Of a stretch of DNA of 64,000 bases, positions 8,796 to 61,400 are shown one piece after another (the stretch's first letter is position 1; each line of letters starts with the position of its first letter). Position numbers and translations under genes: made by a program. Source of the stretch: Dictyostelium discoideum. Its lineage: Eukaryota. Location: the NCBI GenBank assembly GCA_000004695.1, contig CM000153.2:3712001-3776000 (forward strand). The letters run 5' to 3'. Below the pieces are notes generated by a model. It saw only the letters and a program-made list of their open reading frames with translations. It had not been told where the DNA came from and did not search any database.

Positions 8796-11358
8796 GATCT
8801 ATAAGTTACTAATTAAATATTATATTTATTTAATTTTTTAATAGTCAAAATATGAACAAACTAAAATTCAATTAAGTTCAATACCAAATTATTTTAGAGA
8901 ACAAATTTTAATTGAGGATTTATTATCAACAATGATTGGAATTGAAGGAGAATGTATACATATAGGAGTTGTACAAGAGAATGAAGATGATTCATTACAG
9001 AGTAATTTAGTTAGTTTTGTAGTTGAAGGAGAGGTTGACCCAAGTAATAATGATTTAGTTCAAAGGATTCTACCATTATGTTCATATTATTCATTCGTTA
9101 ATGATTTCATTCAAATTCGATATGCCTATGAATGGGGTATAATCAATCATTCATTATGTTTTTCAATCGATCAACTATTGAAAGAGTATTTAGTATTGGT
9201 ATCACAATTGGAAGGTCAATTAAAATCAGAGAGATTAAGTTTACAAAGAATGTGGTTCTATTTACAACCAACCATCAAAACATTTGAAATACTTTATAGA
9301 GTGACCTCGGAAATTATGAGATGCAATAGTCATGGTGTTCAAGTGATTAATTTACTCTTAAAGCTACAATCGAAATATTCAAGTGATAAGAAAACCGATG
9401 ATCTATTTCATTATCTCATTAAAGCTACAACTTTACCTTTCTTGGAGATGTTGGACCTTTGGATTCATCAAGGTATAATTAGAGATACCTATTTCGAATT
9501 CATGATTGAAGAGAATACAGATTTAAAACGTGACAATATCAATAGGGATTTTAATGATCTCTATTGGGAACAACGTTATCAAATTCGTCAAGATCAAATT
9601 CCAAAATATTTACAATCACATGCTTTAAAAATTTTAACAACTGGTAAATATTTAAATGTTGTTAGAGAATGTAATCAATCAATTTCACAACAACAACAAC
9701 ATAATAAATCTGACAATAATAATAATAATAATAATAATGTAAAATTAAACAGTCAACAACAATTATTATTATTAAAATTAAATACAACTCAACAACAACA
9801 ACAACAACAACTTTCAAGTACATCAGCATCAATGATACCAACAACAATTATTGAATATTCAAAGAATGAAAATGTTTATATTGATAAGATTGAAAAAGCA
9901 TATGATTATGCAAGTGGTATATTATTAAATTTATTAATTAATGAAAGACATTTAATCTCAAGATTAAAAGCTATTAAACATTATTTCCTCTTATGCAAAG
10001 GTGATTTCTTTTCTCACTTTATGGATACCACTTATGATGAATTAAAGAAACCATTGGATCAAATTAATATGGTTAAAATGAATTCATTACTTCAACTCTC
10101 ATTAAGAACTTCTTCAATATCTGAAGAGGATGAATTTAAAGATGATTTAGAATGTGAATTCATTCCATATAAATTGGTTGATCAATTATTAAATATTATT
10201 AACATTAATAATTTTAATAATCCAACAACTACAACTACTACAAATACTTCTTCAAATAATATAACAGCGACTACAAATACTTCTTCAAATAATACAACTA
10301 TAAATACAACAGTTAATACAACACTAATTCAATCAACATCAGCACATGAAGTTTTAAAAACTAATAAATTATTTGGTATTGAATCTTTGGCATTTAATTA
10401 TAATGTTGGTTGGCCATTATCTTTAATTATTAGTAGAAAATCTTTAATAAAATATCAAATCATATTCAGACATTTATTCCTTTGCAAACATGTTGAAAAG
10501 GTTTTGGTTGATACTTGGAGTCAACATCAATTTAGAAGGTCATCCTATAATAAACCTGGTCTTTCAACTTTATTATCCTTTACTCATTTACTTAGACATC
10601 GTATGATTCATTTCTTACAAAATTTAGAATATTATATGATGTTAGAAGTTTTAGAACCAAATTGGAATAAAATGAAAAACTCAATTAAAACTGTAAGTTT
10701 TTAATTACATATATTTATAATATAATTTAAAAAAAAAAAAAAAAAATTATTAATTATCTTTTTTTTTTTTTTAATTAGTCAAAAACTGTTGATGATGTAA
10801 TTAGGATTCATAATGATTTTTTGGAAACTTGTTTAACAGAATGTATGCTTACTGATACTAAATTAGTTAATGTATGTTTTATTATTATTTTTATTATTAT
10901 CTTTAGATTAAATTAATTTACTAATTTTCTTTTTTTTTTTTATTTTTTTTTTATAGATTTTAATGAAATTCATGTCACTTTGTATTACTTTTGCAAACTT
11001 TACAAATGAAATGATGCAGGATGAAAAGAACATTGATACAGAACAAATTAAAAAGACAATTAGTAGTTCAGAAAATAAATTCCATGCCATTCTTAAAGTA
11101 TTAATGGATACATTGAAATCATTTTCAAAGACTGAATCAAATAGACATATGATTCATTTAATTCATAGATTGGATTATAATGGTTATTATTCACATTATT
11201 TTGAAAATAATCCAAATTTATTTAAGAATAAGACTTCTTCATCAAGTAATAAATCTAATAATGTATCACCACCTTTAGAACCAAGATTTTCATACCAACA
11301 ACAACAGCAACAACAGCAACAACAGCAACAACAACAGCAGCAGCAGCAACAACAGCAG

Positions 11359-18679: not shown

Positions 18680-21595
18680 ATGATAGATCCGGATACAGGA
18701 TCATCAAATAATATCTCACCAACTATTAGTATATCTAGAGTTGGAATGTTACAGCAAGGTGGCGGATATGATTCAATTGGGTCATCAAATAGTATGATGA
18801 ATATTGATGATACAGCAAGTAATATAAGTGGTGTTAGTAACTTTTATATGAAATCATCATTAAAAAATCATAATAATAATAATAATAATAATAGTAATAA
18901 CAGTGAATTATCACAATCACCAAAGAAAAAATTTGGAATTTCATCACATCATCAAGGTATTCATTTTTCAAATTTAGGAGGATGGTTTTCAATGTCACAT
19001 TTACATAATACACAAAAATCATTTACAGATTTAAGTCAAAAGATATTTCATGGAAAGGGTATAAAGAAACTTAGAAATATGAAAAAGAAAAAGAGAATTA
19101 AAAAAAGTAAAGCATCTTATATTAGAAGAAGGAAACTTAGTAAATTAATGAATAGTAGAGTATCAATGATAATAATGATAGTTGCGACACTATTCCTATT
19201 ATATATTGATGATATTTTGTATACATCATTGGCACCAAATTCACCGGCCACATTTAATTCAGTATCGGTTTTAAAGGTTATTGTATTTTTTATATTTGTA
19301 ATTGATTTAATATTTCAAATCTATGTTCAAAGATTGGCATATATTTTAACATTATTCTTTCCCATTGATTTAATATCGATTGCATCATTGGTGCCAGATG
19401 TAGTTGGATACGTTTTCAGTGTCACTAGTTTATTGTATGCATTAAATTCATTATCAATATCTAGAACTGCCAGAGTTGCAAGAATGGCATCTCGGTTATC
19501 AAGAATCGCAAGAATTATAAACTTTTTCGATGTTTTTCAATGTGGTAAACGTGTGGATGATAAACCAAAGAATGAGATATCAGTATCTGTTGAACCAAGT
19601 ACAATTGGAAAGAAACTATTGGCTAAAACATCTCATAAAATTGTGGTAATGTGTTTATTGATTGTATTGATCACAACATTAACTTCACCAGCACCAGATT
19701 CAGATCCATATTTTACTTCAATCTTAGAGTTATTGGTTATTTCTGCTAATCAAAATGGTATAAACTCTCAAGCATTTACAACATCATTTAATGAAATTCA
19801 AAGTAATAAAGATACAGTTGACCTTTTATACTTAAAAGTTAATGGTATCGATGTTTATCAATCATCAATTAATACAGACGAATGGTATCCAAGTTGGATT
19901 ATTAAAAATTCATTCAATGGTTCAGATATTAATGAAATGTGGGTAAACAATCAAAAGAATGAACAATATTTAGCAGCTTTATCAATTACAATGACAACTT
20001 GTTTAATAATTATACTTTCATTTGGAACTTTATTAATTTCAAGGGATTTTCAAATTTTAGTTATAAAACCAATTGAAAGAATGATATCATTAATTAAAAA
20101 GATCTCATCAATGGAAAGAGGGTATGACAGTGATTATGACTCCGATCCAGATGATGAATATACAAATCAAACCACTGAAGATGATGGTAATTGTGGTGCA
20201 GATGATGGTGATGCTAAAAATATAAATATGAATGATTTAGAAGTTGGTGGATTTTCAAGTGCAGGTGATTCAGATTTTGAAAGTTTTGGAGAATATGGTT
20301 CAGAAGAAAATGAAACAGAAATTCTTGTAGAGGTTTTAAATGAATTGGCATATAAAAAATTATCAAATCAAAATAATGAAAGAATTCAACATGAAAATAA
20401 ACAAAAAATAGTTGATGGATTGAATTGTTTATTGGCAAATATTAAATCATTTGCACAAAGAAAACATTTTACCAGTGAACTTAAAATTTATAATAGAAGA
20501 CATAGAATTGTTAAAGAGATTTTAACTACTGAACAAACCTATTGTAATTCATTATCAACAAAGATTGAAGTTTTCATTTTACCATTACGTAGTAAATCGA
20601 TTATTTCAAATGATGATCTTTCAACTATATTTAGTAATTCTGAAGTTATTCATCAATTTAATAGTGGATTTTTAGCATTACTAGAGGAGAAAATTAATAA
20701 TTGGTCTACTAATCAATCGATTGGTGAAGTGTTTAATTATTTGGAGAATTCAGTTCAATGTTATAGTACCTATGTAAACAATTATAATAACTCAATAAAG
20801 GCATTGGAAGATTGTAAGAGAGATAATGAGAAGTTTGTAGAGTTTTTAGCGGACCAACGTGAAAAGGCATCGATAGAGTTACCAGGTTATTTAATTATGC
20901 CCGTTCAACGTATGCCACGTTATGTGATGTTATTAGAGGATTTATTAAAACATACAGCACCTCAACATTTCGATTTTGAACCAATTGATAATGCTGTTAA
21001 ATCATTAAAGAAAATAACGGTACAATTGAATGAAAGAAAGAGAGAATCAGAGAACAAACAATCGATTCAAGATATCTATATGCAATTGGTACCACCAATT
21101 CAAGACATTTTAACACCTGGAAATTGTATAGCTGCAAATTCAAAATTAAAACAAGACTCTCTTAAATTCCATTTCATCCTTTTCCAAACTGGTCTATTAA
21201 AAGTTGAAAAGAGTCATGACGAATTACATGTTAAACAATATTATCAAATTAAAGATAAACCAATCGTATTAACTGTACTCCAAGATGTACCTTCAATGAA
21301 ATTCTTTAATGCTTTTCAAATAAAGATTGAGGATGAACATGAACTATTACTCTTTGCAAAAACTGAAGAAATTCGTAATCAATGGATAAACGCTTTAACT
21401 CAATTTACAAAAGTTCAAACTCAACGTACAAAGAGTGTTTTAATGATAAATTCTCATCTTCGTAAATCAACCATTAGTCGTGGTAGTGGTTCAAATATAC
21501 TTCAAAATTCACCTTTATCAACTTCAAGATTATCTTATTCTTCAAATTCTGGTTCTCAAAGTGGTGGTAGTAGTAGTAGAAATTTAAATAAATAA
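18680..21595 (+). CDS. RhoGEF (DH-PH) with an N-terminal voltage-sensor-like multi-TM domain, 971 aa, single exon
   Basis: DH domain motifs are clear: RRHRIVKEILTTEQTYCNSLSTKIEVFILPL.. and ..LPGYLIMPVQRMPRYVMLLEDLLKHT. A PH-like region follows (..LFQTGLLKVEKSHDELHVKQYYQI..). About residues 150-470 have 4-6 predicted TM helices, including an S4-like helix LSISRTARVARMASRLSRIARI with Arg at every third position. S2- and S3-like helices carry Asp. Confidence 0.85.
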   Translation: MIDPDTGSSNNISPTISISRVGMLQQGGGYDSIGSSNSMMNIDDTASNISGVSNFYMKSSLKNHNNNNNNNSNNSELSQSPKKKFGISSHHQGIHFSNLGGWFSMSHLHNTQKSFTDLSQKIFHGKGIKKLRNMKKKKRIKKSKASYIRRRKLSKLMNSRVSMIIMIVATLFLLYIDDILYTSLAPNSPATFNSVSVLKVIVFFIFVIDLIFQIYVQRLAYILTLFFPIDLISIASLVPDVVGYVFSVTSLLYALNSLSISRTARVARMASRLSRIARIINFFDVFQCGKRVDDKPKNEISVSVEPSTIGKKLLAKTSHKIVVMCLLIVLITTLTSPAPDSDPYFTSILELLVISANQNGINSQAFTTSFNEIQSNKDTVDLLYLKVNGIDVYQSSINTDEWYPSWIIKNSFNGSDINEMWVNNQKNEQYLAALSITMTTCLIIILSFGTLLISRDFQILVIKPIERMISLIKKISSMERGYDSDYDSDPDDEYTNQTTEDDGNCGADDGDAKNINMNDLEVGGFSSAGDSDFESFGEYGSEENETEILVEVLNELAYKKLSNQNNERIQHENKQKIVDGLNCLLANIKSFAQRKHFTSELKIYNRRHRIVKEILTTEQTYCNSLSTKIEVFILPLRSKSIISNDDLSTIFSNSEVIHQFNSGFLALLEEKINNWSTNQSIGEVFNYLENSVQCYSTYVNNYNNSIKALEDCKRDNEKFVEFLADQREKASIELPGYLIMPVQRMPRYVMLLEDLLKHTAPQHFDFEPIDNAVKSLKKITVQLNERKRESENKQSIQDIYMQLVPPIQDILTPGNCIAANSKLKQDSLKFHFILFQTGLLKVEKSHDELHVKQYYQIKDKPIVLTVLQDVPSMKFFNAFQIKIEDEHELLLFAKTEEIRNQWINALTQFTKVQTQRTKSVLMINSHLRKSTISRGSGSNILQNSPLSTSRLSYSSNSGSQSGGSSSRNLNK

Positions 21596-21660: not shown

Positions 21661-22753
21661 TTAACATTCAATTTTAAAAACTTCATATTCATCAACTTGA
21701 AAATATCTTTTACCTTTTCCTTTACTATCATAATAAGATTCAAAGAAATTCTCTTTATTTATATTACAATTATTTGAAATTGTTAAATTTTTACCCAATA
21801 TACCAAAAGTTGGACCATAATTAATGTTTGAATAAATTGATTGACTTGATGAACCTTCTTCTTTTTTTATAATTGATGGTGGTATATTTGCCAAATCAAA
21901 TAAAAATGATTTATCATCTTGAGTATATTGGGTAGACAATGTCCAATTACGACTTGCATATCCTCCAAATATACAATCCTTTGATCTAATAATTGTAATT
22001 GTGGATCCTTTAAAATCACATAATTCATGAAATCTCTTTGATGAAAAATCATTATCTGATCCCTAATTAAATATAATAAAATTAGATTTTCTTTTAATTA
22101 ATAATAATAATAATAATAATGGTAATAAAATGATTTGATTGGTCCTTACTCTATATAATAATCTTGTTTTTTTAATTTGTAATTTTGATTTTAATAATCT
22201 AATTAAATCTTTTGATAATTCAACAGATAAAATTTTTGATTGATAAAAATGATATGGATATAACAATTCTTTTAAACCTGATAAACAATAAAAATCTGCT
22301 TCAACATATAATTCATTTCTAATTTGTTCACACTCTGGAATATTTGAACAATCACCTCTTAAAAAATTTAAAATAATTCTAAAATGTGTACCATCTCTTT
22401 AAATTTATATATATTTAAAATATCAAAAAAAATATTTTAGTAATTAGATAAAATTATTTCCAAAAATTCCAAAAAAAAAGTAAAAAAATTATAAAAATTA
22501 CCTATCAATAAAATAAGTATCAGGTTTATTTGGAGTTTTGATTACATTTACATTATAATTACCAGAGAATAATATATCAAAGTAATTATTTTTTTGATTT
22601 GTTAAGGTTCCTTTTGTAGTACAAAATTTGAAACCACCTATATTTAATATTAATGGTTCATTATTTGATTGTACCTGTTGTTGAAATTGTTGTATTTGTT
22701 GTAATTGTTGTAATTGTGTATATAAATGATTTTGATTATTTTGTTGTTGTTGC

Positions 22754-22789
<36 letters not shown>

Positions 22790-22953
22790 CCATGACTATA
22801 ATATAATGTTGATAAATTTTCATTACTATTATTAAAATATGGATATAGTGAGTTTGATGAAGATCTTATTGATGAAGTATACTCATTTCCATCATCAACG
22901 GATTGTAATTTTAATGAAACTGATGAAACATCATTTGGTATAACTTGGTTCAT
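21661..22953 (-). CDS. BTB/POZ (KCTD, T1-type) + TLDc domain protein, ~366 aa, 3 exons
   Basis: The exons on the minus strand are 22953..22502, 22396..22150 and 22062..21661. The donors are GTAATT and GTAAGG. The BTB spans exons 1-2 (PLILNIGGFKFCTTKGTLTNQ...DTYFIDR|DGTHFRIILNFLRGD). Exon 3 encodes a TLDc-like domain (..IIRSKDCIFGGYASRNWTL..DDKSFLFDLANIPP...). The N-terminus has a poly-Gln tract. Confidence 0.8.
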
Positions 22954-25675: not shown

Positions 25676-28354
<2,679 letters not shown>

Positions 28355-36301: not shown

Positions 36302-37971
36302 ATGACAACATCATTAGATAAACAATTATTACAAGTTAAAGAAAAGATACATTATGTAGATGTATCAAAGAAAAGAGATTCATTATTATTTGGAGCAGTT
36401 GAAGCAGCCAATATTGATTTAGATTCAGTGTTGGCAATGGGACAAGAAGGTTTAAGTGAATTGATAAATATAGATTCAAGATTTAAATGTTTTCAATTGA
36501 CATTGTTTTCCGATAATTCAAAATCATTCAATAGAGTCTTGGAGAACAAAGAAGAAAATAACAAAATTGATATTGAAATTAATAAATTTTTAGAATTACA
36601 ATCAAATTATTTCCTTTTATCTTCCGCTCATAAATCATTAGAATGGTTAATTCGTAGATATAGAATTAATGAATTCAATATAGATTCAATCATCTCCTCA
36701 ATTATACCTTATCATGAATCAAATATTTTTGCTAAATTTTTATCAATTTTAAGATTTGAGTAAGTAAAAAAAAAAAAAAAAAAAAAAATTATATTCTTTT
36801 ATTAATTATAAAATTTTCTTTTTTTTTTTATTTTATTTTATTTTAATTTAGGTTTAATAAAAAATGGCAATTTTTAACAGGAGTACAAGAAAATAAAGTT
36901 TATATACCAAGAGAATATTTCATTGGTGTTGTTGGGTCACATCCATTCTTTTTAGAATTTATTTACAGTACAATTGAAAATTATGATAAAAAAGATGTCA
37001 TGTCAAAACCGTTAATCTCATTTTTTACCGCTTTTTTAATTGAACTTTTATCTGCAAATACTACATCATACATTAGAGATACTTTATCATGTTTAACAAA
37101 ATGTTTAAAGAGTAAAAATAGTGATTTACAAGTAAGTAAAATTTATCTCAAAATTAATAACCCCAAGCATATGCAAATTTATTTTTACACCTTTTTTTTT
37201 TTTCAAAAAAAAAAAAACGACCGAAAAAAAAAAAAAAAAAAAACTCAAAATTTTATTTTTTTTATTTTTTTATTTTTTTTTGAAAAAAAACCGATAATGC
37301 GTGATCTCACAAAATGTCTTATACTAACATTTTTTTATTTTTTTTATTTTTTTTTTTATTTTTTTTTTTTAATTAATTAGCTTTCAAGTTATATGATCCT
37401 TAGTATTATTGCTTCAAAGGTTACACTTTCAAAGGATGTAATTGAATTATTATTTAAAACTACATTGAAACATTGTACCAACAATTTTAGTCAAGCTTTC
37501 ACCTTCTTAATGGTTTTATTCCAAAAACAAAAGTTTGATTCATTACCAAATGAAACCTTAAAAACTTTAGTATCAATTCCGTAAGTAATTAACTTTTTTT
37601 CTTTTTTTTTTTAAAAAAAAAAAAAACTAAAATCTAACATATTTTTAATTTTTTTTTAAAGAGCACTTTTTGAAATTTTATTAGATTTCAATTCACAAGA
37701 GAAATCATTAGATAGAGTATTATTAATTTTATTTAAATATTTATCAAAGAGTTGCATTGAATCAGCAGAAAGTTATACATTGTTAAGTCAATTAATTGAG
37801 GAGTTGGTTCCAATTTCAAATCAATACCATGTTTTAATCTTTAATACTTTAACAAAATCATATTTAGCAACTACTAAAAATTCAAGTAAAGATGAAGTTG
37901 ATGAATCAGTTATAAATATTTTAAGATCATTAAATTCTGAAGTTGTTCAAGATGAATTTAAAAAACTTTCA

Positions 37972-38010
<39 letters not shown>

Positions 38011-41000
38011 CAAAAACTAAATGAGATTATAAAATTACAAAAATCAGTACTTCAACAAAAAACAATTACAACATCATCATCAAATACTATTTTCTTAAAA
38101 TTACAAAGTAATATACCATCAGAACGTAAAGAAGGTTTAACATTATTTAAAAAGGAGTATTGTTCAAAAACAGGAAAAGAAAAAGAAGAGACAACAACTA
38201 GTACTGATTTCAATAGTATTTCAAAATCATTTTCATCAACAATTTATCAACGTTTAATTGATTCTGATGGTTCAATTGTAAAGGAAGCTTGGAATTTACC
38301 ATCATTAAATTTAATAGTTTCACCAAAAGAATTATTAAAAGCAAGTATTGAATTCTTTAAAGTTCAATCATTCTTAAATGATAAGAAATTATTAGATACA
38401 GTTTTATCAACAATAACAAGTGTAGTTGTCAATCAATCTTCAAATTCTTCTTTAACACCAGATTTTGTTTCAATTTTATTACCACAACTTTTAGATATTT
38501 CAACCACTACCACTACCACTGCCACTTCAATAATAAAGAAATTAAACAAAGATATTCATCCAATTTTTAATAATATTACATCATCAAATATAGAATCATT
38601 AATTAAATCAATTTCAACAAATTTAGATAAAGAATCAAATATTACTTTTATAAATCAAATTTCAAAATCAACTTTTTCAACTTTTAAATCTGATATTTTC
38701 ATAATATTAATTTTATTAAATTCAATAATAAGTTGTAATAATAATAATAATAATAAGAAAAATAATAATAATTTAATTTACCAAATGTTTAATATAATAG
38801 TAGAAATTTCAAAATCATATTTATCAAAAGAAGAATCAATCATAACTAATATTAATAATTTACAAGAAGTTTATAAAATAATTAATGAAAATAATAATAA
38901 TAATTTTAATTTAAAACAACAAATTAGTTTAATTTGTTCATTATTATCAATAGCGATTGATTCTTTATTTACAATTTCACCAGAACAATTTATGAAACAA
39001 CTTCAAAATTCATCGTTATCATCTTCATCAAATACAATTGAGGAGAAAATGATTAAAGAAATTCAAAATATTTGTAAATTAATATTTAATAGTAAAATTA
39101 CAAATATTGATTTAGTATTAAGAAGTATTGTAAAGAAATTCTTTGGTAATCAATTAGTATTCTTTAAATTTTTATCACAATTTTGGGAAGTCAATGAAAA
39201 TAGTGAAAATCAAGATATTACAACCATTTATCAATCACTTTGCCTTAGTGGAATTTTAGTAAACTCAAAATCATTCAATCGTTACCTTATAAATAATAAT
39301 CAAGCAGTAGCTTTAATTCCATATTTATTATTATTAAAAAATCAAGATTCCTCAATTAGATCAACTTCCCTTGATTCAATTCAAGAGATTTATAAACAAA
39401 TTAAGTCTTCATCAATTGAAGCATCATCTTCAACAACAACATCAAATAGATTAAATTTCTATACATCAAATCAACCAACTATTGAATTAAAAGTTTTAAT
39501 TAAATTCTTGGCTCAATTGGTTCAATATAAGAATGAAATTACAATGGATAAAACATTTTTGGATAGTTATTTCTCAAAAGTTTTATTCAATTCTCAAATT
39601 AGTTCAAGTTCTAAAGCTTCTTCAAGTAGTGATGATGATGATGATGATGATGACGATGTCGATCAAGATGTATCAAAAATGACTAAACAAGATATTGAAT
39701 TAATTGGTAAATTCTTAATTTCAAGTTCATTACTTATTGAATCATTATCAAGTAGATTAACAATGTTACAATCATTACAATCTATTAAAGATGATGTTAC
39801 ATTTGTTGAAGTTACCATCAACTATATTAGCCAATTATTGGAGAATGTTAAAAATGCCACTCTTACATATGATGAATCTTTAATTTTAGATATCCTCTTA
39901 AAGAGATTAGGTCAAACATCAGTACTTACAAATCCAAAAACCAAGAAACAATCATTATCATTATTCATTTCATCTTTATCAATTTCAAATGAATTAGATT
40001 TGACTATTGCTGGTGGTGGTAATGATAAACCAATTAAATATACACCATTGGTTGCCTTAATTGGTTCAATTAATAAATCATTATTATTAACTGTACCAGT
40101 TAAAGAACAAATTGGTATTGTTGAAACAGTACTTTCTTATTTCTTCTCTGAGAGTAATCAAATTAAACAATTGGCAAAGAATACTTTATTATCCGTATTA
40201 GTCGATGCAACTGTTATTTTACCAATGTTATTACCAGAGAAACAACCACAACAACAACAACAATCTACAACATCTTTACCAATTCCAAGATATAATTCAT
40301 TATTTGAATTGATTAGATTAAATTCATCAAAAATTAATGGTATTTCAATTTTAGTAACACCAATTTTATCAATTATTAAAAAGATGGAAACTAGTATTGT
40401 TGAAAATGTTGAAAAGGATGCATTGGAATATTGTAAACAATTGGCTATGGCATCACTTGGTTCAATTATTGATTGTTCCAGTGTAAAGGATGTTAAGAGT
40501 TTGGAAACTTCATTTGATATTTCAATTATAATTAAATGTGTTGAATCATCAAATAATCTTCAAACTTGTAGTAGTGCATTAATATTACTCTCAAACATGG
40601 CTTCTAAATTCCCACAAAAATTATTCAAATTTATGGAATCAATTATAAAGATGATTAAATTCGTATTGACCAATGGTGATGATAATTTCTCATTCATGAT
40701 CTTGGAGAGATTCTTAATTCAATTATTACCAAGTTTGGTCAAACAAGGTATTTCATTGGTTCAAATCTTTAAATTATTCTTGGATTCGTTCTCTTCAATT
40801 CCAAAGAAATTCCGTTTACAATTATTCAATTGTATTTGTCAATCGGTCGCTTATAAACAGTTACATATATTGTTTAGTTTAATTCTTACAAAGAAGATTC
40901 AAGATTTACGTATTATCACTAATAAATTGAAACATTTAGATAAAGATACCATAATGAGCTCTGATGAACAAATTAAAGAAGAGATCGATTATGAACAATT

Positions 41001-43437
41001 CAATGAATTCATTTCACAATTCTCTGATCAAATTCCAGTATTGGAAATGTCAACAAGTTTAGGAAGCCTTTGTCAATCTATTAATTTAATCTCAATTGAG
41101 TCTGGTAATTGTGTTGAAGCGCTATCAGAAGAGGAGGAAGAGATTTGTTCATTACTTTCACGTAATAATTCAAAGGATAATCGTTTACTTCAAGCCAATA
41201 CATTGGATTTCATTTGTGAACGTTTATCATCAAAACTTTATTTGGACAGTTTCAGTTTCGATTTAACTAGTCAACAAAAAGAACTCGTCGAAACTAAATA
41301 TCTCGGAGCATTTGAAAATCTTTTAATCCTTTTGAAAAAGACCACTGAATATAGCGAGAAAACATCAAATATCAAACTTAATGGTAGTGCCAATAGTATT
41401 AGTATTGCAAGTGGTAAGGATAAATTCATAAAGAAACTTTTATCCTCAATTAATCTTTGTATGGATCGTTATGGTCAATTACTTAGTGTCAAAGGTTTCA
41501 TTAGTACAATCACTCAATTACTTAATCATAGTGATAGTAATGTACGTCGTCGTTCATTGGTTATCTTTAATGAGAAGATTACATTGGTCAAGGATGATCT
41601 CACTCAAGACCAAGTCAATCAATTCCTCTCACTCATTGATTCGTTCACTCGTATCATCGATAGTCAAAATGAAACTGAAACCAATAAACAAACATCACTC
41701 TTGTCATTTGAAATTTTAGCACGTAATTTCTCGACTACCAATGCCACCGCTTTCCTCTCACAAATTCCAATCATCATTAAGTCCATGGGTCATAGCAGTC
41801 ATCAAGTGGTTTCCTCATCTTTGATTTGTATCGCTACACTTTGTTGTGAACTCCAAGCAAAGACCATACCATACATTCCACAGTTCTTCCCTGTCTTATT
41901 GAATACCCTCACTGGTAGCTATAAAACCAACGTTGAAGAAGAGAATGAAACTCGTACTCTCTTACAAATTAGTTGTATCAGTTCATTGGAGATGATGTTG
42001 AATACAATTTCAAAATTCCTTTCACCTTATTTACCACAATTGTTAAATGCATTACTTCATCCACGTCTCACAAGTAATAGTATGTTATCTGGTAAATTGT
42101 TTGCTCAAGTTAAACGTTTATTAAATATCTTAACAAAGAATGTAGAATTCCGTCTCTTATTACCTGCAATGTTTTCTGCTTACGAATTTGCCGTTCAATC
42201 TGAAAATGATTTATCTTTGATTTGCTTATTCGATTTCGTTGGTGATATCTCTGCAAATTTAGGTCCAAAAGATATTGCACTCCATCATAAGAGTATCTTT
42301 AAATTCTATTTACAATGCTTTGAATTCCGTAAGAAATATAAAAATCGTGTAAAGAATGCTGATAAAGTTGAAGATCATATCATTAGTTCTTTCATGACAT
42401 TAGTTATGAAATTAAATGAAAACCTTTTCAAACCATTATTTATTAAAGTTTTAGATTGGGCATTAAATATTCAAAATGGTCAACAAAATGGTAAACATAC
42501 TGATGATGATGATGAAGAAAATGGAAGTGATGATGAAGAAAGTGATGAAGATAAACCAAAGAAAAAGAAATTGGTGAATGGTAAATCAAAATCAACGAAA
42601 ACTCAACCAGAGATTTCAAAAGATAATTTATTATTCTTTTATAAAATTGTAAATTCTTTAGCATCAAACTTAAAAACTATTTTTGTACCATACTTTGGAT
42701 ACTTTTTTGATGATTCAATTCGTCAACTTCAAAATATATATAGTAATATTCCATTTTCACAACAACCACAACAACAACCACAACAACCAACTGTAAATGA
42801 TAACACCACCATCACACTTTTAAACAATAATAATAATAATAATAATAATAATATAAATAATAAGAGAAAGAAGAATCAAAATATAACGAATACAACAACC
42901 ACTAACAATAATAGTAATAATAATTTAAATAATAGTAATAATAATAATATTGATCAAGATGAATCAATTTTATGTTTTGTAATTTCAGCATTAGAGAAAT
43001 GTTTTATGTATGATACTGATGGATTTTTAGATAAACAAAAGTTTGAACAAATTTTACCAGCACTTGTTAATCAATTAGATAATCAAATGGGTACAGTTGA
43101 AAGTTATAAATTAAGAGTTTCACGTTACATCGCCCCAACCATCACTCAATTGGCTGTTGTTATCAATCAAGATCTCTTATGGAAACATTTGAATCATACA
43201 GTTTTAATGAAAACAAGATCACCTTATTCAATCGTTCGTTACTCTTCAATGGTTGTAGTTCAATCACTTCACAAGAAGATGGGTGAACAACTCTTAATCC
43301 TTTTACCAGAAACAATTCCTTTCATCTCTGAATTATTAGAAGATTCAGTTCCAGAAGTTGAACAAATAACTCAAGATGTCGTTAAAATTATTGAAACTCA
43401 TCTTGGTGCAGAAGAATCAATTTCTTCTTATTTATAA
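36302..43437 (+). CDS. HEAT repeat-containing protein 1 / UTP10 (U3 snoRNP, SSU processome) homologue, ~2237 aa, 4 exons
   Basis: The exons are 36302..36759, 36852..37131, 37381..37580 and 37662..43437. All donors are GTAAGT, and all acceptors are T-rich and end in AG. The N-terminus MTTSLDKQLLQVKEKI...FGAVEAANIDLDSVLAMGQEGLSELINIDSRF..SAHKSLEWLIRRYRINEFNIDSIISSIIPYHESNIF aligns with human HEATR1 residues 1-150. The C-terminal ..ELLEDSVPEVEQITQDVVKIIETHLGAEESISSYL matches the BP28-C-terminal domain region. Confidence 0.85.
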
Positions 43438-48698: not shown

Positions 48699-50734
48699 GA
48701 GCAAAATATAGATTAGGACCAGAATTAGAAATTTGTGGATATGGTTGTGAAGATCATTTTTTAGAACAAGATACAATGTTACATTGTTGGCAAAGTTTAG
48801 CAGTAATATTAAAGGATCCAGAGTTAACAAAGGATATTTTAGTTGATGTTGGTATGCCAGTATTACATAAGGATGTTAGATATAATTGTAGAGTCATATT
48901 ATTGAATCAAAAGATTTATTTAATACAACCAAAGAAAGCCATGGCAATGGATGGTAATTATAGGGAAGGTCGTTGGTTTACACCATGGATTAAACCAAGA
49001 GTTGTGGAAACTTTTTATCTTCCAAGGATCATTAGTCAAATCACTGGTCAGGATGAATGCCAAATCGGTGATGCAATCATTTCAACACTTGACACAGCCA
49101 TTTCGTCAGAGACATGTGAGGAGTTATTTACACCAAATTCACCACATATTCAAATGGGTTTAGATGGTGTTGAAATCTTTACCAATGGATCAGGTTCACA
49201 TCATCAACTTAGAAAATTAGATACACGTGTTGATTTAATTCGTTCAGCCACCTCGAAATCGGGTGGTATCTACCTATACTCGAATCAACAGGGTTGCGAT
49301 GGTAGTAGATTGTATTATGATGGTTCATGTATGATCATGATCAATGGTGATTGTGTAAGCCAAGGTAGTCAATTCTCTTTGGTAGATATCGAAGTTATAA
49401 CTGCAACTGTAGATTTAGAGGATGTTAGATCGGTTCGTGCTAGTTTTATGGCACGTTGCGCTCAAGCTAATCTCACTAAAGAATTCCCACGTGTACGTTG
49501 TCCAATTCAATTGACTCATATAGATTATTGTCATCCACCTGATAGAGTGATTCACATCAATTACAATACACCAGCCGAGGAGATTGGTTTTGGTCCAGCA
49601 TGCTGGCTTTGGGATTATCTTAGACGTTCAGGTTTATCAGGTTACTTTTTACCCTTATCAGGTGGTGCTGATAGTGCTGCCACTGCCGCTATCATTGGTA
49701 TCATGTGTCAATTGGTTATATTGGATGTTAGTAAAGGTAATAAACAAGTATTAAAAGATGCGCAACGTATCACAAATTCACCAGAGGACTATATACCAAC
49801 TGATTCAAGGGAATTTGCATCACGTTTATTCTTTACAGCTTATTTAGGTAGTAAAAATAGTTCAAAAGAAACTAGAGATCGTGCAATGGAAATTGCAAAA
49901 GATATTGGATCAGTTCATAAAGAAGTGGATATCGATGATATCTCTCAATCATTCAATGATGCATTCTCACAGATCACTAAAAAACAACCACAATTTCGTG
50001 CTCATGGTGGTACACCACGTGAAAATCTTGCATTACAAAATGTTCAAGCTCGTACTCGTATGGTTCTATCCTACCATTTGGCATCACTATTACTTTGGGA
50101 ACAAGGTCGTCCAGGTTCTCTATTGGTTTTGGGTTCTGCAAATTGTGACGAATCATTACGTGGTTATATGACAAAATATGATTGTTCATCCGCTGATATC
50201 AATCCAATTGGTGGTATGTCAAAAATTGATTTACGTTCATTCATTGAGTGGGCTGGTAAATTCAGAGATATGAAATCAATTCTCTCTGTACTCACAGCAA
50301 CACCAACCGCTGAATTAGAACCAATCACTGAAAACTATACACAATCCGATGAAATTGATATGGGTATGACCTATGAAGAATTATCAATATTTGGTAAATT
50401 AAGAAAAGTCAATCGTTGTGGTCCAGTTTCAATGTTTGAACGTTTGGTTGCAGATTGGGCACATTTAGAACCATCAGTTGTGGCTGAAAAAGTTAAACGT
50501 TTCTTTTATTATTATGCAATCAATCGTCATAAATTAACAACTTTAACACCATCCTATCATGCTGAAGGTTATTCTCCTGATGATAATCGTTATGATCATC
50601 GTCAATTCCTTTACAATTCAAAATGGGATGTTCAATTTGAAACTATTGATAAAATTGTATTAAGATTATCTCAAAGACCACAATTAAAAAATACTGTAAA
50701 CTGTCCAAATCAAGCATCATTAACTCAACAATAA
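48460..50734 (+). CDS. Glutamine-dependent NAD+ synthetase (NADSYN1/Qns1), ~713 aa, 2 exons
   Basis: The exons are 48460..48566 and 48700..50734, with a GTAAAA...TAATAG intron in phase 2. [36 protein letters not shown]|[20 protein letters not shown].. is collinear with human NADSYN1 ([57 protein letters not shown]). The PP-loop [40 protein letters not shown] and the C-terminal ...[32 protein letters not shown] are all conserved. Confidence 0.9.
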
Positions 50735-55529: not shown

Positions 55530-55963
55530 ATGTCATCAAATAAATCTTCATCCAAAAAAAGAAAAAATGAGATAAATTCAAATGCCACTCACAATATTTT
55601 ATCTGTTACCACTAATAACAATAATAGTGAAAAGCAAACTAAAAAATTAAAATCTACTCTTTCAGAATCAACCACAACGAAAACTATCACCTCACCACAA
55701 CAACAACAACAACAACAACAACCACAACAAACCCAAAATAATAAAATAAATATTAAAGAAATCTATAATATATTTAATAATACAAATAATGCAAATAATA
55801 CAAATAATTCAAATAATAACAATACAGTTAGCGCAGACACATGGGATGGCACAACTCCAATTGAAAATTTAACAATTGGACAATTAATATCCTCACTAAA
55901 TGGTAATTATATCTTAAAAATATATTATCCTTTTATATATATATATATTTCAGCTATACTAAT

Positions 55964-56005
<42 letters not shown>

Positions 56006-57075
56006 CCAAAATTTTATAGGCAGACAACATAATCTTAGAATTATTGTTGCAGAGTATATGAATTCATTGAATAGATTAATCGGATTTACAGAAAAAACAC
56101 CATATCTCCTAAATTGGGTTTTAGATAATTTATCAAAATCATTTATAAATTGGAAACAACCTGAGAAATCTGAGCAATTAATTCAAAAAGGTATTGAACC
56201 ATTATTCTTTGAGGAAAGATATTGGACATTATTAGAAAGTTTGGTTACAAAACAAATTTCATTACAACAACAACATCAGCAACAACAACAACAACAACAA
56301 CAAAATGATACAACAAATAATTCAACCTCAACATCTAATTCTTCAAATTCAATTAAATTGTCAAATGAATATTTACAATTTATATTTGAAATTATATTAA
56401 ATAGTATTAGAAATATTGATTTAAAATTAGATATTTTCAATTCAACAAATTTACAACAACAACAACAACAACCTATCATTATATCAAAAAAGAAAAAGAA
56501 TATTAATATTCCATATCAACTTACAACATCACCACCACCACCAATTAAATTATTAGAATTTTCAAAAAGAATATCTACATTATTAATTAAAATATTTTCA
56601 AGTGATGAATTAATGAAAGAGATACCATTATTATTAGAGAATTTAATTCCATTATCAATTAAATATTTAAGAAATTCAAAAGATTTATTATTAAAAAATG
56701 AATCAACAATAATCTCAATCATTGATTTATATCAAACTTTATTCCAATATTTATTAGTTCAAACTAAATTAGGTATAAATTATAAATCAATGTTTACAAC
56801 AACTTTATCAACACTATTACCACATATAATAACACTTTTAAATACTTTGGAAAATATATCATCAATAATTCCAACATCATCTCAATTGATTGAAACAATT
56901 GATCAATTTTTAAAATGGACATTATATCATCCAGAATCTCATTGGGATTCTTACTCTTTTATTTTATTCTCTGATTGGTTAAAAAAGATTGTAAAAGATA
57001 CAACATCAAAAGAAAAAAGTAAAGAAAATGAAAAATTAAAATCAAAAGAAAATGAAAAAGAAAAAGAAAAAGAAA

Positions 57076-57107
<32 letters not shown>

Positions 57108-58416
57108 GAAAAAGAAAGAGAAAAACAAAAAGAAAAAGAAAAAGAAAAAGAAAAAGAAAAAGAAAAAGAAGATTTACAAATTTATCAACCTCAATTAATT
57201 TTAGATTGTTTATTACAAATTATTAATGGTAATAATCAAGTTTTGAATAGAGTTGTTTGTTTTAATGAAAAAGATACAGTATCTAGTATTTTAGTGAATT
57301 CACTTTATAAATTTTTAATTTACTTTATTGAACAATATGAAAGTTTTGGATATAGACATTTTAAAGATATAGTACAATGGTATGATAGTGCTAATCATAA
57401 GGATGAAAAATTCATTGAGTTTGCTTACTTTAGAAAATTATTTTCATTAATTAATACACCAACTCTATTATCAAATAATCCAACCTATTATGAATCGGTT
57501 GCAAAATTATTAAATCAAGTTTCAATTTTAAATATCTTTCATATTAGTAATCGTCATCAAGTTGATTATCTTTCAAACACTGTTGCAAATAGTTTTTATT
57601 TATACCTTTCAGCATCAAAGAATAATAATCAAAATAATCAAAATAATCAAATTAAACAAGAAATTATATTGAATGGTATTTATAAATGTTTAACATCAAT
57701 AATTAAAATTAGTAATACATTAATTGGTAATAAATTAAAGGATATAATTTTACCACATATTTGGTCAAATAACATATCAACATCAACAACAACAACAACA
57801 AAAAATACTAAAAATGGTGATTATGATGATGATAATGAATCATTATTATTTAATAATGGAAGATGTGAATTTTTAAAATCAACATTTGATAGTTATTTTG
57901 AAATTCGTCAAATGGATACACTTTTAACAATGGTTTTCCAATCTATTATTAGTGTACGTTCATTTGGTAGTGATAGTAAATTTTCAATTAATCAAGATTT
58001 CTTAAAGCATATTTCAAAATTATTCTCAAATTTACCATTTGGTCAAGTACCAATCATTTGGAGTTTATTTTTAGAAGAATGGCAAGGTTATTATATTACT
58101 CAATTAAATGAATCAAATAATAAAAGTTTAGGTGATGATAATGACCAAAGTATGTTGGACCCAATGTTTTCATATCGTTTAGAATACTTTATTAAACTTT
58201 GGTCAACTTTTCTTGATGGTATTACAATTTCATCATTTGTTTATAAAATGATTTTACAATTATTGCCAAATACTTTTCAATCAATTGTTGATCCAATTTT
58301 AAATGAAATTTATAAATCTTCTTCTGCTTCTTCTTCTTCTTCTTCCTCTTCGAGAAAATCTTCAAAATCATCTTCAAAATCATCTTCCTCAAAATCATCT
58401 TCTTCGAAATCAAATG

Positions 58417-58476
<60 letters not shown>

Positions 58477-61400
58477 GTATTATAAATTTATTAAAATTAT
58501 ATTCAAGTTTTCTTCAAGTTCATTCGTTTATACATCGTCAAACAATTATAAGTGGTAAAAGTGGTGAAAATGAATTTGGTTATCATCCTCAACAATTTTA
58601 TTATTATCAATTATGTGAAAAAGAATTAGAATTTAGTAAAGTTATTGAGTATTTAATTAATAATAATAATTTTGAAAATAATTATTCAAATAAATTAATA
58701 GCATCAAAATTATTAATTCAAAGAGTTCAACAACTTCATTCAATTTTATCATCAGTTTCAATTGCAAATTATAAAAGAAATATTAATAATAATAATATTA
58801 GTAGTAATAATAATAATTATAATTATATTAATCAAAAATCAAATAATAGTAAAAATATTGAAAATGATAAAATTAAATATATTTCATCATATTCAAATCA
58901 ACAATATTCACCAAAAGATATTGAATATGAATTAATTGATATAGTATATTATTTATTAAACAATTTCATTAAATTAATAAATGATAATAATCTTTTATTT
59001 AAAAAGTTCAATACTTTAAAACAACAACAAATTCAAGATAAATTAGAACAACAGGATAACAATAATAAAGATGAAGAAAATGAAGATAAAGAAAAAAAAT
59101 TAAATTTATTAATTTATCAAAGTAAATTATTAATTGATAATATTAGTACATGGTGTGAATATTCAACAATTGAAAATATTCAAAATATTTTAAAATTCAT
59201 TATTTCACCGCCAATTGAAATTAATAATGATGATAATAATAATAATTGTAAATTAAAAACAACCAACTCAATAACAACAACATCAATTTATAAAGAATTT
59301 CAAAAATTATTATCAAATCCATTATTTTTTGAATTAAAAGTTTTTCAAAATAATTTTCCAATTGTGTTATGTCAAATGGAACGTGATATAATTACTAAAG
59401 AATTAATTAAATCAAATAAATTATTTGAAAAAGTTACAGAAATATTTAATGATGTTCAAGAAAGATTAATTAATAGTGGTAGTCTAACACCATCAAATAC
59501 ATCCTATGCTGAAATTATTATTGAAATTCAAGAATGTTTTTCAAAGAAAATTACATTAAAAGATTTTAATTTATCTGATACTTCAAAATGGGAAAGATTA
59601 ACATGGTTAGTTTCATTGGCACCAAGTTTTCATCCACTTTATATTCCAATTGAATTAATTGGACCATTAGTATTATCATCAATTGCAATTAATCATATTG
59701 GTGTTTTATTATTAAAACAAATTCAAGATACTTCAACCATTGATAATAATAATAATGAAAAAGATTTAGATTATATTTATAAATTAATTTTATCATCAAG
59801 AAGATTTATTAAATTTTGTTTTGAAAAGGATCAATCAAGATTAGTTCAAATTATACCAATGAATGTTTGGATTGATTTAATTTTTAGTTCTAGAATGTTT
59901 GAATCAATTGATACAAAATATCCAATTTTATTTACAAGTTTAGAAATTCAACATCATTATAATACTGAACTTTGGAAGCATTCACCAATGGAATTAAAAA
60001 AATTATCTGATAAAATTTTAAATAAAAAATCAAATAATAACAATAATAATTCTGCAGCAGCAACAACAACAACAACAACAACAATAACAACTTCACCAAA
60101 AATTATTTCAACAAATTTAGATTTTAATACAATTAAACCTTATTTAATTGCTGGTATTTTAAAATCAATTTCAACAACAAATTCAAATAATCAAATGTTA
60201 TCAGATATTTTACCACCAGATCTTCAATCAATTATAAAGAGTGTTGAACCAGATATTTCAATATTTTATGAGAAAATGTTTAATCATTGTTCAAGTAATC
60301 CAACATTTAATAATATTGCACCATTCTTTAATGAATATCAAGCTGAATTCTCTTTATTGGTTTATCATCTTTGGTATCAATTATATTTCAATGCAATTGA
60401 TAACGAATCATTATCAAAATTATTAATAACTGTTTCATTCTCTGGTGTATTTATTTCTGGTTTATCAAGTAAAGGTAGTGGTTTAATTACTTCTGTTGAT
60501 AAATATTCTTTAATTCTTCAAAATTCAATTATATCATTATTAGATTTATTCTCACGTTGGTATAGTAAAATACCTGCAAATCAAAGTCAAACAAGCTCAT
60601 CATCATCGTCATCATCGCCAATGATGATTGATTCATTGCATGCATTATCATTACTTTCAAAAATGTTATCTTTATATCCAGAGGATTCTAAACTTTATAA
60701 ATCAATTTCAGCTGCAATTATTCAATTCTTCCAATTAAATAATCAATTAGGTTACCTTTTAAATTCAATTACTACAACTATGGAATCATCATCAACTTTA
60801 TCATCGTCATCAACTAATTCAATTGCAATTCAATCTCAATCATTTAATTTACTTGGTTATTTTATTAGTTCAATCATTGGTACAAAACGTATTAATTTAT
60901 TAAAGAATCCAATTAAATTAGTTACTGCAATTGTAAACATTTTAAATCAAACAAACTCTGAATCATTAATTGTATCAGGTATTAATTTACTTTGTAAATT
61001 AATGAGTGTCAATGTTATTGATGTTCATGGTGAATCTATTCCAATCATTTTAAGTGTAATGAGTTTCTTTTCAAGTCCATTCATTTATTCAACACCAGTT
61101 AGAAGTATTGCAAGTTTTAGTACTGAAATCATTCCAAATTGTCCAATGTCATTATTTATTAAAGAGAAATTATCTGCTGATAATAATATCAATAATTTCA
61201 GCAGCAGCGGCAGTAATGGTTTGAAATTTAATAACATCACACCTTTAATTTTAAATTCACTCTATAAATTACTTTATATTATTCTTAAATTTAGAAATAA
61301 TGAATTAACAAAATATTTACCATCTTTTGTTTCTTCTTTAAGATGTACGTATTAAATTATTTTTATAGTTTTATTATTATTCAGTTGCAAAAAAAAAAAA

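Follow-up and report, generated by a model that had tools for sequence, protein, structure and literature searches.

The DNA analyzed here is a window of 64,000 nucleotides from Dictyostelium discoideum (contig CM000153.2, positions 3,712,001 to 3,776,000, forward strand). The gene DDB_G0285859 was found at 18680..21595 (+) of this window as a single-exon open reading frame (ORF) that runs from an ATG to a TAA, the stop codon being included in the span, and encodes 971 amino acids (aa). The original prediction of an uninterrupted ORF at this position was exact, and the translation is 100% identical to XP_637967.1 of D. discoideum AX4 (UniProt Q54MM3). It was also suggested that the gene might already carry a generic RacGEF annotation. 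This was wrong, as the existing names are only "hypothetical protein" or "DH domain-containing protein". The ORF is preceded by a run of A 5' of the ATG and followed 3' of the TAA by an AT-rich spacer of ~15% GC, typical of Dictyostelium. We find that the product combines a voltage-sensor domain (VSD) with a Dbl homology (DH)-PH guanine nucleotide exchange factor (GEF) for Rho-type GTPases, and we regard this architecture as highly probable.

The transmembrane (TM) helices S1, S2, S3, TM5 and TM6 were called by hydropathy, with S4 as an amphipathic candidate, in agreement with the four to six membrane helices predicted for the N-terminal half. The features are given below with their position in the window, strand and basis.

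18680..21595 (+), whole gene (single-exon 971-aa ORF, DDB_G0285859)
19067..19159 (+), polybasic cytoplasmic stretch before S1, aa 130-160, with 16 K/R and no D/E (composition; positive-inside rule)
19160..19228 (+), S1, aa 161-183, with T170 at the position of the Hv1 selectivity Asp and invariant D177 and D178 at the outer end (hydropathy, orthologs, Hv1 alignment)
19265..19330 (+), S2, aa 196-217, with the charge-transfer centre F206-x-x-D209, both invariant, followed by R218 on the inside (orthologs, Hv1 alignment)
19337..19408 (+), S3, aa 220-243, with invariant D230 (inner) and D240 (outer) (orthologs, Hv1 alignment)
19451..19534 (+), S4, aa 258-285, with the gating-charge candidates R262, R265, R268, R272, R275 and R278 (orthologs, cassette alignment)
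19535..19633 (+), cytoplasmic S4-TM5 linker, aa 286-318, with the family-wide motif EPSxxGKKL at aa 305-313 (alignments)
19634..19696 (+), TM5, aa 319-339 (hydropathy, structure model)
19697..19963 (+), extracellular α/β domain, aa 340-428, of two helices and four strands, acidic, variable in sequence and fixed in length, not a pore loop (model, alignments)
19964..20041 (+), TM6, aa 429-454 (hydropathy, structure model)
20042..20122 (+), juxtamembrane helix RDFQILVIKPIERMISLIKKISSMER, aa 455-481, with the family-wide motif LVIxPIERM (alignments)
20123..20311 (+), acidic, poorly conserved linker, aa 482-544 (composition: 22 D/E and 1 K/R in the 64 residues 482-545)
20312..20494 (+), helical pre-DH region, aa 545-605 (no Pfam match)
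20495..21049 (+), DH RhoGEF domain, aa 606-790, with invariant E618, Q743/R744 and N784/E785 (Pfam, PDB alignments, orthologs)
21137..21409 (+), PH domain, aa 820-910, with invariant W902 (Pfam sub-threshold, collybistin alignment, orthologs)
21410..21592 (+), Ser-rich C-terminal tail, aa 911-971 (translation, orthologs)

The DDB_G0285859 product is predicted to cross the membrane six times, so that its N and C termini both lie in the cytoplasm. The 16 K/R before S1, the uncharged outer loops, the basic S4-TM5 linker and the acidic ectodomain form a positive-inside pattern, which places the DH-PH part on the cytoplasmic side. The ectodomain between TM5 and TM6 was predicted as a folded α/β unit with a pLDDT (predicted local distance difference test) of 79-86.

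Several other names for parts of the protein were considered and rejected. The region after TM6 resembles a HAMP domain only in having a Pro-containing helix start, and gave no Pfam HAMP match even at E ≤ 10. Neither Cache nor PAS domains were matched in the Pfam scan of the protein. An IQ/calmodulin motif in the pre-DH helix (aa 542-607) had no Pfam match and was off register by eye. The family PF26726 appears to cover the neighbourhood of the juxtamembrane helix. It was rejected as a name for the TM module, being the family "Helical_RasGEFs" that sits between the VSD and the DH domain. A protein that carries PF26726 only (P0176) resembles the D. discoideum protein solely in TM6 and the PIERM helix.

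The S4 string LSISRTARVARMASRLSRIARI spans aa 258-279 and has Arg at 262, 265 and 268 and then at 272, 275 and 278. Arg thus recurs with a period of three, but the register slips by one residue past the third of them, so the predicted Arg at every third position holds within each half but not across the middle. When the protein's own sequence was shuffled, ~0.1% of the shuffles gave both a spacing-3 run of at least three Arg and at least six Arg within 17 residues. The Arg ladder falls within a predicted TM helix and not in a soluble region. The Asp residues predicted for the S2-like and S3-like helices were identified as D209 and D230. All strings quoted in the original prediction were located in the translation.

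The Pfam Ion_trans family (PF00520) matched the D. discoideum protein alone with 19 bits (cut-off 25, E = 8.9e-4) over profile positions 9-121, which correspond to S1-S4. Six of ten orthologs, searched singly, match the same profile (best 8.1e-7), and three relatives that have the whole membrane module in common with it were above the cut-off (P0024 with 26.8, P0040 with 29.1 and P0031 with 35.6 bits). The expected Ion_trans match of the N-terminal region was thus borne out by the relatives, but remained sub-threshold for the protein itself. A profile of the dictyostelid S1-S4 searched against PDB gave one significant sequence, human Hv1, aligned in register, while the second match had E = 1.6. 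The residue pairs with Hv1 are F206/D209 with F150/E153, D230 with D174, D240 with D185, R262/265/268 with R205/208/211, and S271 with N214. A superfamily S1-S4 profile built from 37 sequences retrieved 33 PDB sequences at E ≤ 1, all of them VSD proteins, the best being VSD-IV of Cav1.2 (2.8e-4), Hv1 (3.6e-4) and Kv1.2 (7e-4). An AlphaFold2 (AF2) model of the VSD alone had a pLDDT of 84.1 and a predicted TM-score (pTM) of 0.73, and the top 50 Foldseek matches to this model were all VSDs, with probabilities up to 0.99. The segment was therefore found to belong to the VSD fold. Judged from its sequence, S1-S4 is a real, non-pore VSD of the type found in Hv1 and the voltage-sensing phosphatases (VSPs), with an intact charge-transfer centre (F206, D209 and D230) and six Arg in S4.

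The C-terminal half was predicted to hold a canonical DH domain followed by a PH-like region, and both were found. The strings quoted for the DH domain are present, and the Pfam RhoGEF family (PF00621) matches aa 610-784 with 169 bits (E = 1.6e-49). The Pfam PH score of 22.4 bits lies just below the cut-off of 25.1, but DH and PH together give one continuous alignment with collybistin (2dfk, residues 42-362, E = 7e-25) that includes the PH Trp. The catalytic-core residues E618 (CR1), Q743, R744, N784 and E785 (CR3) are invariant in the orthologs, as are the motifs TEqtY, QRmPRY and LNERKR and the PH Trp. With these core residues retained, the DH-PH part is predicted to be competent for exchange. 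Soluble Dbl GEFs such as collybistin/ARHGEF9, Asef/ARHGEF4 and ECT2 align with it end to end (E about 1e-24 to 1e-26) and keep the same CR1 and CR3 residues. These GEFs are, however, cytosolic and regulated by SH3, BRCT or autoinhibitory modules, and none has an integral-membrane sensor. Orthologs of Rho and Cdc42 are reported to be absent from D. discoideum (PMC1914345). The Rho GTPases of Dictyostelium are all of the Rac type, so the substrate should be a Rac.

The central idea of the original prediction, a voltage-sensor module fused to a DH-PH RhoGEF by analogy with VSPs, is thus supported at the levels of sequence, fold and gene unity. The analogy does not extend to details. VSPs such as Ci-VSP have a PTEN-like phosphatase and a C2 domain as output, whereas here the output is DH-PH and neither a phosphatase nor a C2 domain was matched at E ≤ 10, which rejects an assignment as VSP. 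In VSPs S4 leads directly into the enzyme through a short linker, whereas here TM5, the ectodomain, TM6, the conserved helix and the long acidic linker intervene. No sequence relation to VSPs was detectable beyond the generic VSD.

Ten full-length colinear orthologs were found in Dictyostelium, Polysphondylium, Tieghemostelium and Acytostelium, with identities from 98 to 45%. All ten retain both modules. D177, D178, F206, D209, D230, D240, R262, R265, R268, R272 and R275 are invariant among them. Identities per segment were computed over seven divergent orthologs. Of all segments of the protein, the juxtamembrane helix after TM6 had the highest conservation (89.9%). S4 had an identity of 82.7%, compared to 64.9% for the DH domain, 61.7% for the PH domain, 48.3% for the ectodomain and 37.6% for the acidic linker. 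A distant ortholog, P0024, is 31% identical from the basic stretch before S1 to the end of the PH domain, and is encoded by one unbroken ORF (16-2442) on a transcript-like contig of 2,476 nt. In D. purpureum the gene of the ortholog (L001:6001-8937) spans ~72 nt more than its coding sequence accounts for. This implies a single short intron, which is absent from the D. discoideum gene.

The region shared with more distant relatives extends beyond the VSD. A dictyostelid profile of aa 145-482 (VSD, linker, TM5, ectodomain, TM6 and juxtamembrane helix; ~335 positions), hereafter the cassette, was searched against 1.84 billion cluster representatives. It matched 1,427 proteins at E ≤ 1e-3, of which 425 reached E ≤ 1e-10, with many single matches covering approximately positions 5-330 of the profile. 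Among the best 148 of the 1,427 matches the output was a class III cyclase in 94, a RasGEF in nine and a RhoGEF in one. Further partners were cyclic-nucleotide phosphodiesterase (PDEase_I; P0069, P0167), RGS (P0077, P0084, P0086, P0093, P0097, P0119), an N-terminal SH3 (P0174, P0106) and Calx-beta (P0095). The named members are all eukaryotic and include green algae (a Tetraselmis "adenylyl cyclase", Volvox and Edaphochlamys), mycetozoans (D. purpureum, Cavenderia and Ceratiomyxa) and opisthokont protists (Lithocolla and Pigoraptor).

The elements of the sensor were conserved throughout this family. Across 127 full-length cassettes the S2 Phe is present in 113, a Glu/Asp three residues on in 117, and the S3 Asp in 122. 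S4 has up to nine basic positions in this alignment. The ladder falls at profile positions 118/121/124 and then 128/131/134/137/140/143, so that the register slip is found superfamily-wide and not in Dictyostelium only. It might reflect, for example, a 3-10 helix or a kink. EPSxxGKKL before TM5 and LVIxPIERM after TM6 are likewise conserved across the 127 cassettes, and the ectodomain has a fixed length with almost no conserved columns. By score, the cassettes nearest to that of D. discoideum are P0024 with its RhoGEF (181 bits) and the dictyostelid RasGEF paralogs (176 and 153 bits), while all others scored 132 bits or less. From this ranking, the swap between Rho and Ras outputs probably took place within Amoebozoa.

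Prokaryote genomes were pattern-scanned with an alignment of six S1-S4 sequences. This identified full cassette-cyclases in three Candidatus Poribacteria metagenome-assembled genomes and one uncultured bacterium (L003:2674-5379 (+), L004, L005:2764-5373 and L006), whereas the prokaryote scan with a single metagenomic module as pattern gave no match. The bacterial proteins have S1-S4 with ARAGRAARAGARAGRIAR, EPSAIG, TM5, a periplasmic domain of ~250 aa, TM6, ITPIERM and a class III cyclase. Their contigs are 74-122 kb long and carry ordinary bacterial neighbours, e.g., an SBP_bac_1 protein. This distribution suggests gene transfer of the cassette-cyclase between eukaryotes and bacteria. Comparison of the sequences places the predicted VSD at the front of a conserved module of ~335 residues with interchangeable cytoplasmic outputs, found in eukaryotes and Poribacteria. 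The architecture had been called unusual. The fusion of VSD and GEF is real, but it is one output variant of a large family of sensor cassettes and not a one-off.

The closest described relatives are VSD-cyclase fusions of protists. These include the adenylyl cyclases of Paramecium, Plasmodium and Tetrahymena (Weber 2004, as cited in PMC10651576) and PPTG_13136 and PPTG_13761 of Phytophthora (2025). In the literature these cyclases are described as "restricted to Stramenopiles and Alveolates". They resemble the D. discoideum protein in having an Ion_trans-type sensor without a recognisable pore joined to a signalling enzyme, and differ in that the output domain is a cyclase and not DH-PH. Cyclase-bearing proteins are also the majority of the best 148 relatives with the entire cassette. 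The range of the cassette, as identified by the profile searches, is wider than that reported, and takes in green algae, Amoebozoa, opisthokont protists and Poribacteria.

A RasGEF of D. cf. discoideum, P0185 (1,172 aa; orthologs P0026, P0184, P0186 and P0033), has only the cassette in common with the DDB_G0285859 product (aa 136-476, 28% identity, E = 4e-30). In a 2025 screen RasGEFW was the only one of 25 RasGEFs with a transmembrane domain, and GFP-RasGEFW was found at the plasma membrane (PMC11696275). We infer that P0185 is RasGEFW. By analogy with this paralog, the cassette may target proteins to the plasma membrane, the DDB_G0285859 product included. The presumed RasGEFW is the nearest cassette paralog and has the same order of elements, with PF26726 common to both, but its output is a Cdc25-type RasGEF and its S4 is more degenerate, with three Arg and then few charges. 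In the literature it is described only as having "a transmembrane domain", with no voltage sensor (PMC11696275).

In the searchable literature, which excludes subscription journals, we found no mention of DDB_G0285859, no paper joining a voltage sensor with a RhoGEF, RasGEF, phosphodiesterase (PDE) or RGS, and no description of the cassette with PDE, RGS, SH3 or Calx-β. RhoGEF surveys in which Amoebozoa are included say nothing of TM or voltage modules. VSD-coupled enzymes as such are known; the VSD on a RhoGEF appears to be new among them, and the six-TM cassette with many outputs and its taxon range, much wider than that reported, are two further observations.

The 3' neighbour at 21661-22953 (-) looks like a multi-exon gene with a BTB_2 domain of the K-channel tetramerisation type (22498-22953), a TLDc domain (21661-21939) and a long poly-Q tract, and has no evident link to the GEF gene. 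Further large ORFs of the window, at 8932-10704, 25676-28354, 37780-43437, 48776-50734 and 55530-61355, are unrelated genes. Among their products are a γ-tubulin complex component, an FNIP-repeat protein, a BP28CT/NUC211 protein and a glutamine-dependent NAD synthase, and a 1,941-aa ORF among them had no Pfam match at E ≤ 1e-5.

The explanation that we favour, with somewhat better than even confidence, is that the VSD cassette converts voltage to Rac-GTP through the tethered GEF. A change in membrane potential would displace S4, and this motion would reach the juxtamembrane PIERM helix by way of the S4-TM5 linker and then TM5 and TM6. The helix would in turn alter the activity, autoinhibition or oligomeric state of the GEF, so that voltage would lead to Rac-GTP and to actin remodelling at the membrane. 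Cyclases must dimerise, and the cassette therefore probably acts as a dimer in which the TM6-PIERM helices are paired. The 64-residue acidic disordered linker of the GEF variants makes a rigid lever less likely, and control by release of autoinhibition or by membrane apposition appears the more likely alternative. One option is that the acidic linker binds the polybasic end of S4 or the segment before S1.

A number of observations weigh against this explanation. The D. discoideum protein's own Ion_trans score is below the Pfam cut-off, and aa 141-487 searched as a single sequence against PDB with phmmer gave no match. Within the VSD, S4 is the part modelled with the lowest confidence, and it has the register slip. 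S4 is separated from the enzyme by two TM helices, the ectodomain and the 64-residue acidic, poorly conserved linker. With these elements in between, S4 is unlikely to be coupled to the DH domain in a rigid mechanical way, and the real input could be the ectodomain. The resting potential of Dictyostelium is modest, about -46 mV, and pump-generated (PMC11274586). For VSD-cyclases it has been stated that [quoted passage not shown] (PMC10651576), and the main weakness of the explanation is that experiments have yet to demonstrate a voltage response in any protein with the cassette. We consider the chances that voltage actually regulates the GEF to be about even.

The foremost rival explanation takes the ectodomain to be the true input. 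The protein would then be a ligand or contact receptor signalling via TM6 and the PIERM helix like bacterial two-TM sensors, with the VSD modulatory or a scaffold, or with voltage and ligand integrated. The output does hang from TM6 and not from S4, and the helix following TM6 is the most conserved element. The ectodomain, confidently predicted to be folded, has a length that is fixed family-wide and enlarged to ~250 residues in the Poribacteria homolog. It is, however, among the least conserved parts of the protein, at 48% in dictyostelids and with almost no conserved columns family-wide, in contrast to the highly conserved S4 and charge-transfer centre, and the absence of HAMP, Cache and PAS matches also speaks against a receptor of this kind. 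We therefore hold this reading to be unlikely, although it is the strongest of the alternatives.

The VSD might instead be a voltage-insensitive relic that anchors, targets or dimerises the GEF at the membrane, like S1-S4 of many TRP channels. This would fit the lack of functional data for every family member (PMC10651576), the partly degenerate S4 of the paralogous RasGEF cassette, where R-x-x-R-x-x-R is followed by few charges, and a disordered acidic linker that decouples the DH domain. A mere anchor would not be expected to retain the six S4 arginines, the S2 Phe-x-x-Asp and the S3 Asp, and the same residues are kept in more than 100 distant cassettes with different outputs. S4 is in addition better conserved than the catalytic domain. 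A relic is accordingly improbable in our view.

An ion channel with a GEF tail, either tetrameric with a TM5/TM6 pore or with an Hv1-like or omega-type path through the VSD, is very improbable. The overall topology is S1-S6-like, and a Paramecium cyclase of similar general type has historically been tied to a K+ conductance. The prediction of a "6-TM ion transport domain" was nevertheless correct only for S1-S4, which are Ion_trans-like, whereas TM5 and TM6 flank an ectodomain and are not channel-like. The Ion_trans matches end at about position 121 of 241 in the protein and its relatives, before S5-S6. No GYG/TxG-type or Nav/Cav-type filter motif is conserved in the orthologs between TM5 and TM6, where the original prediction had noted no obvious selectivity filter either, and the four-stranded α/β domain occupies the place of the P-loop. 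A pore-forming 6-TM channel was rejected on these grounds. Hv1 was the closest sequence-level PDB match of the dictyostelid profile, and shares S1-S4 in register, the three-Arg core, the S2/S3 countercharges and an uncharged R4 position (S271 here, N214 in Hv1). But T170 aligns with the selectivity Asp D112 of S1, S4 reads RTARVAR with Ala (A264) for the Trp of RxWRxxR, and the coiled coil after S4 is missing, so an Hv1 proton channel was likewise rejected. D. discoideum has been reported to have no Hv channel (PMC10377628).

That a membrane-protein gene and an adjacent RhoGEF gene were merged by the gene model or the assembly is excluded for practical purposes and hardly credible, since the frame is open without a break for 2,913 nt amid spacers of ~15% GC, the ten orthologs are colinear, and P0024 has the same end-to-end architecture as a single ORF; the TM part and the GEF part belong to one gene, as predicted.

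The DH-PH GEF is the ordinary part of the protein and the well-conserved voltage sensor attached to it is the unusual part. Few non-channel proteins coupled to a VSD are known, namely VSPs, the sperm exchanger SLC9C1 and uncharacterised protist cyclases (PMC10651576). If true, a voltage sensor on an exchange factor for small GTPases would be a direct new route from membrane potential to the cytoskeleton without ion flux. Membrane potential in Dictyostelium affects galvanotaxis and not chemotaxis, and the processing of electrical signals has been stated to be unresolved (PMC11274586); the galvanotaxis sensor in animal cells is likewise called elusive (PMC4603535). DDB_G0285859 is a testable candidate for voltage-to-cytoskeleton signalling in a non-excitable cell, and Dictyostelium, being genetically tractable, is a good testing ground.

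The presence of the sensor in front of cyclase, PDE, RGS, RasGEF and RhoGEF in several eukaryotic supergroups and one bacterial lineage suggests a widespread, largely undescribed signalling principle. These natural cassettes could also be a basis for tools that are controlled by voltage or report it. A bolder and doubtful proposal is that the cassette is an ancient general transducer from voltage to biochemistry in which S4 directly gates GEFs (Rac, Ras), RGS, phosphodiesterase or cyclase. In that case the DDB_G0285859 product and RasGEFW would be the missing sensors through which membrane potential and applied electric fields act on the excitable Ras/Rac-actin network, and hence on galvanotaxis. 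Were this the case, voltage-regulated enzymes would be common and not a curiosity of VSPs.

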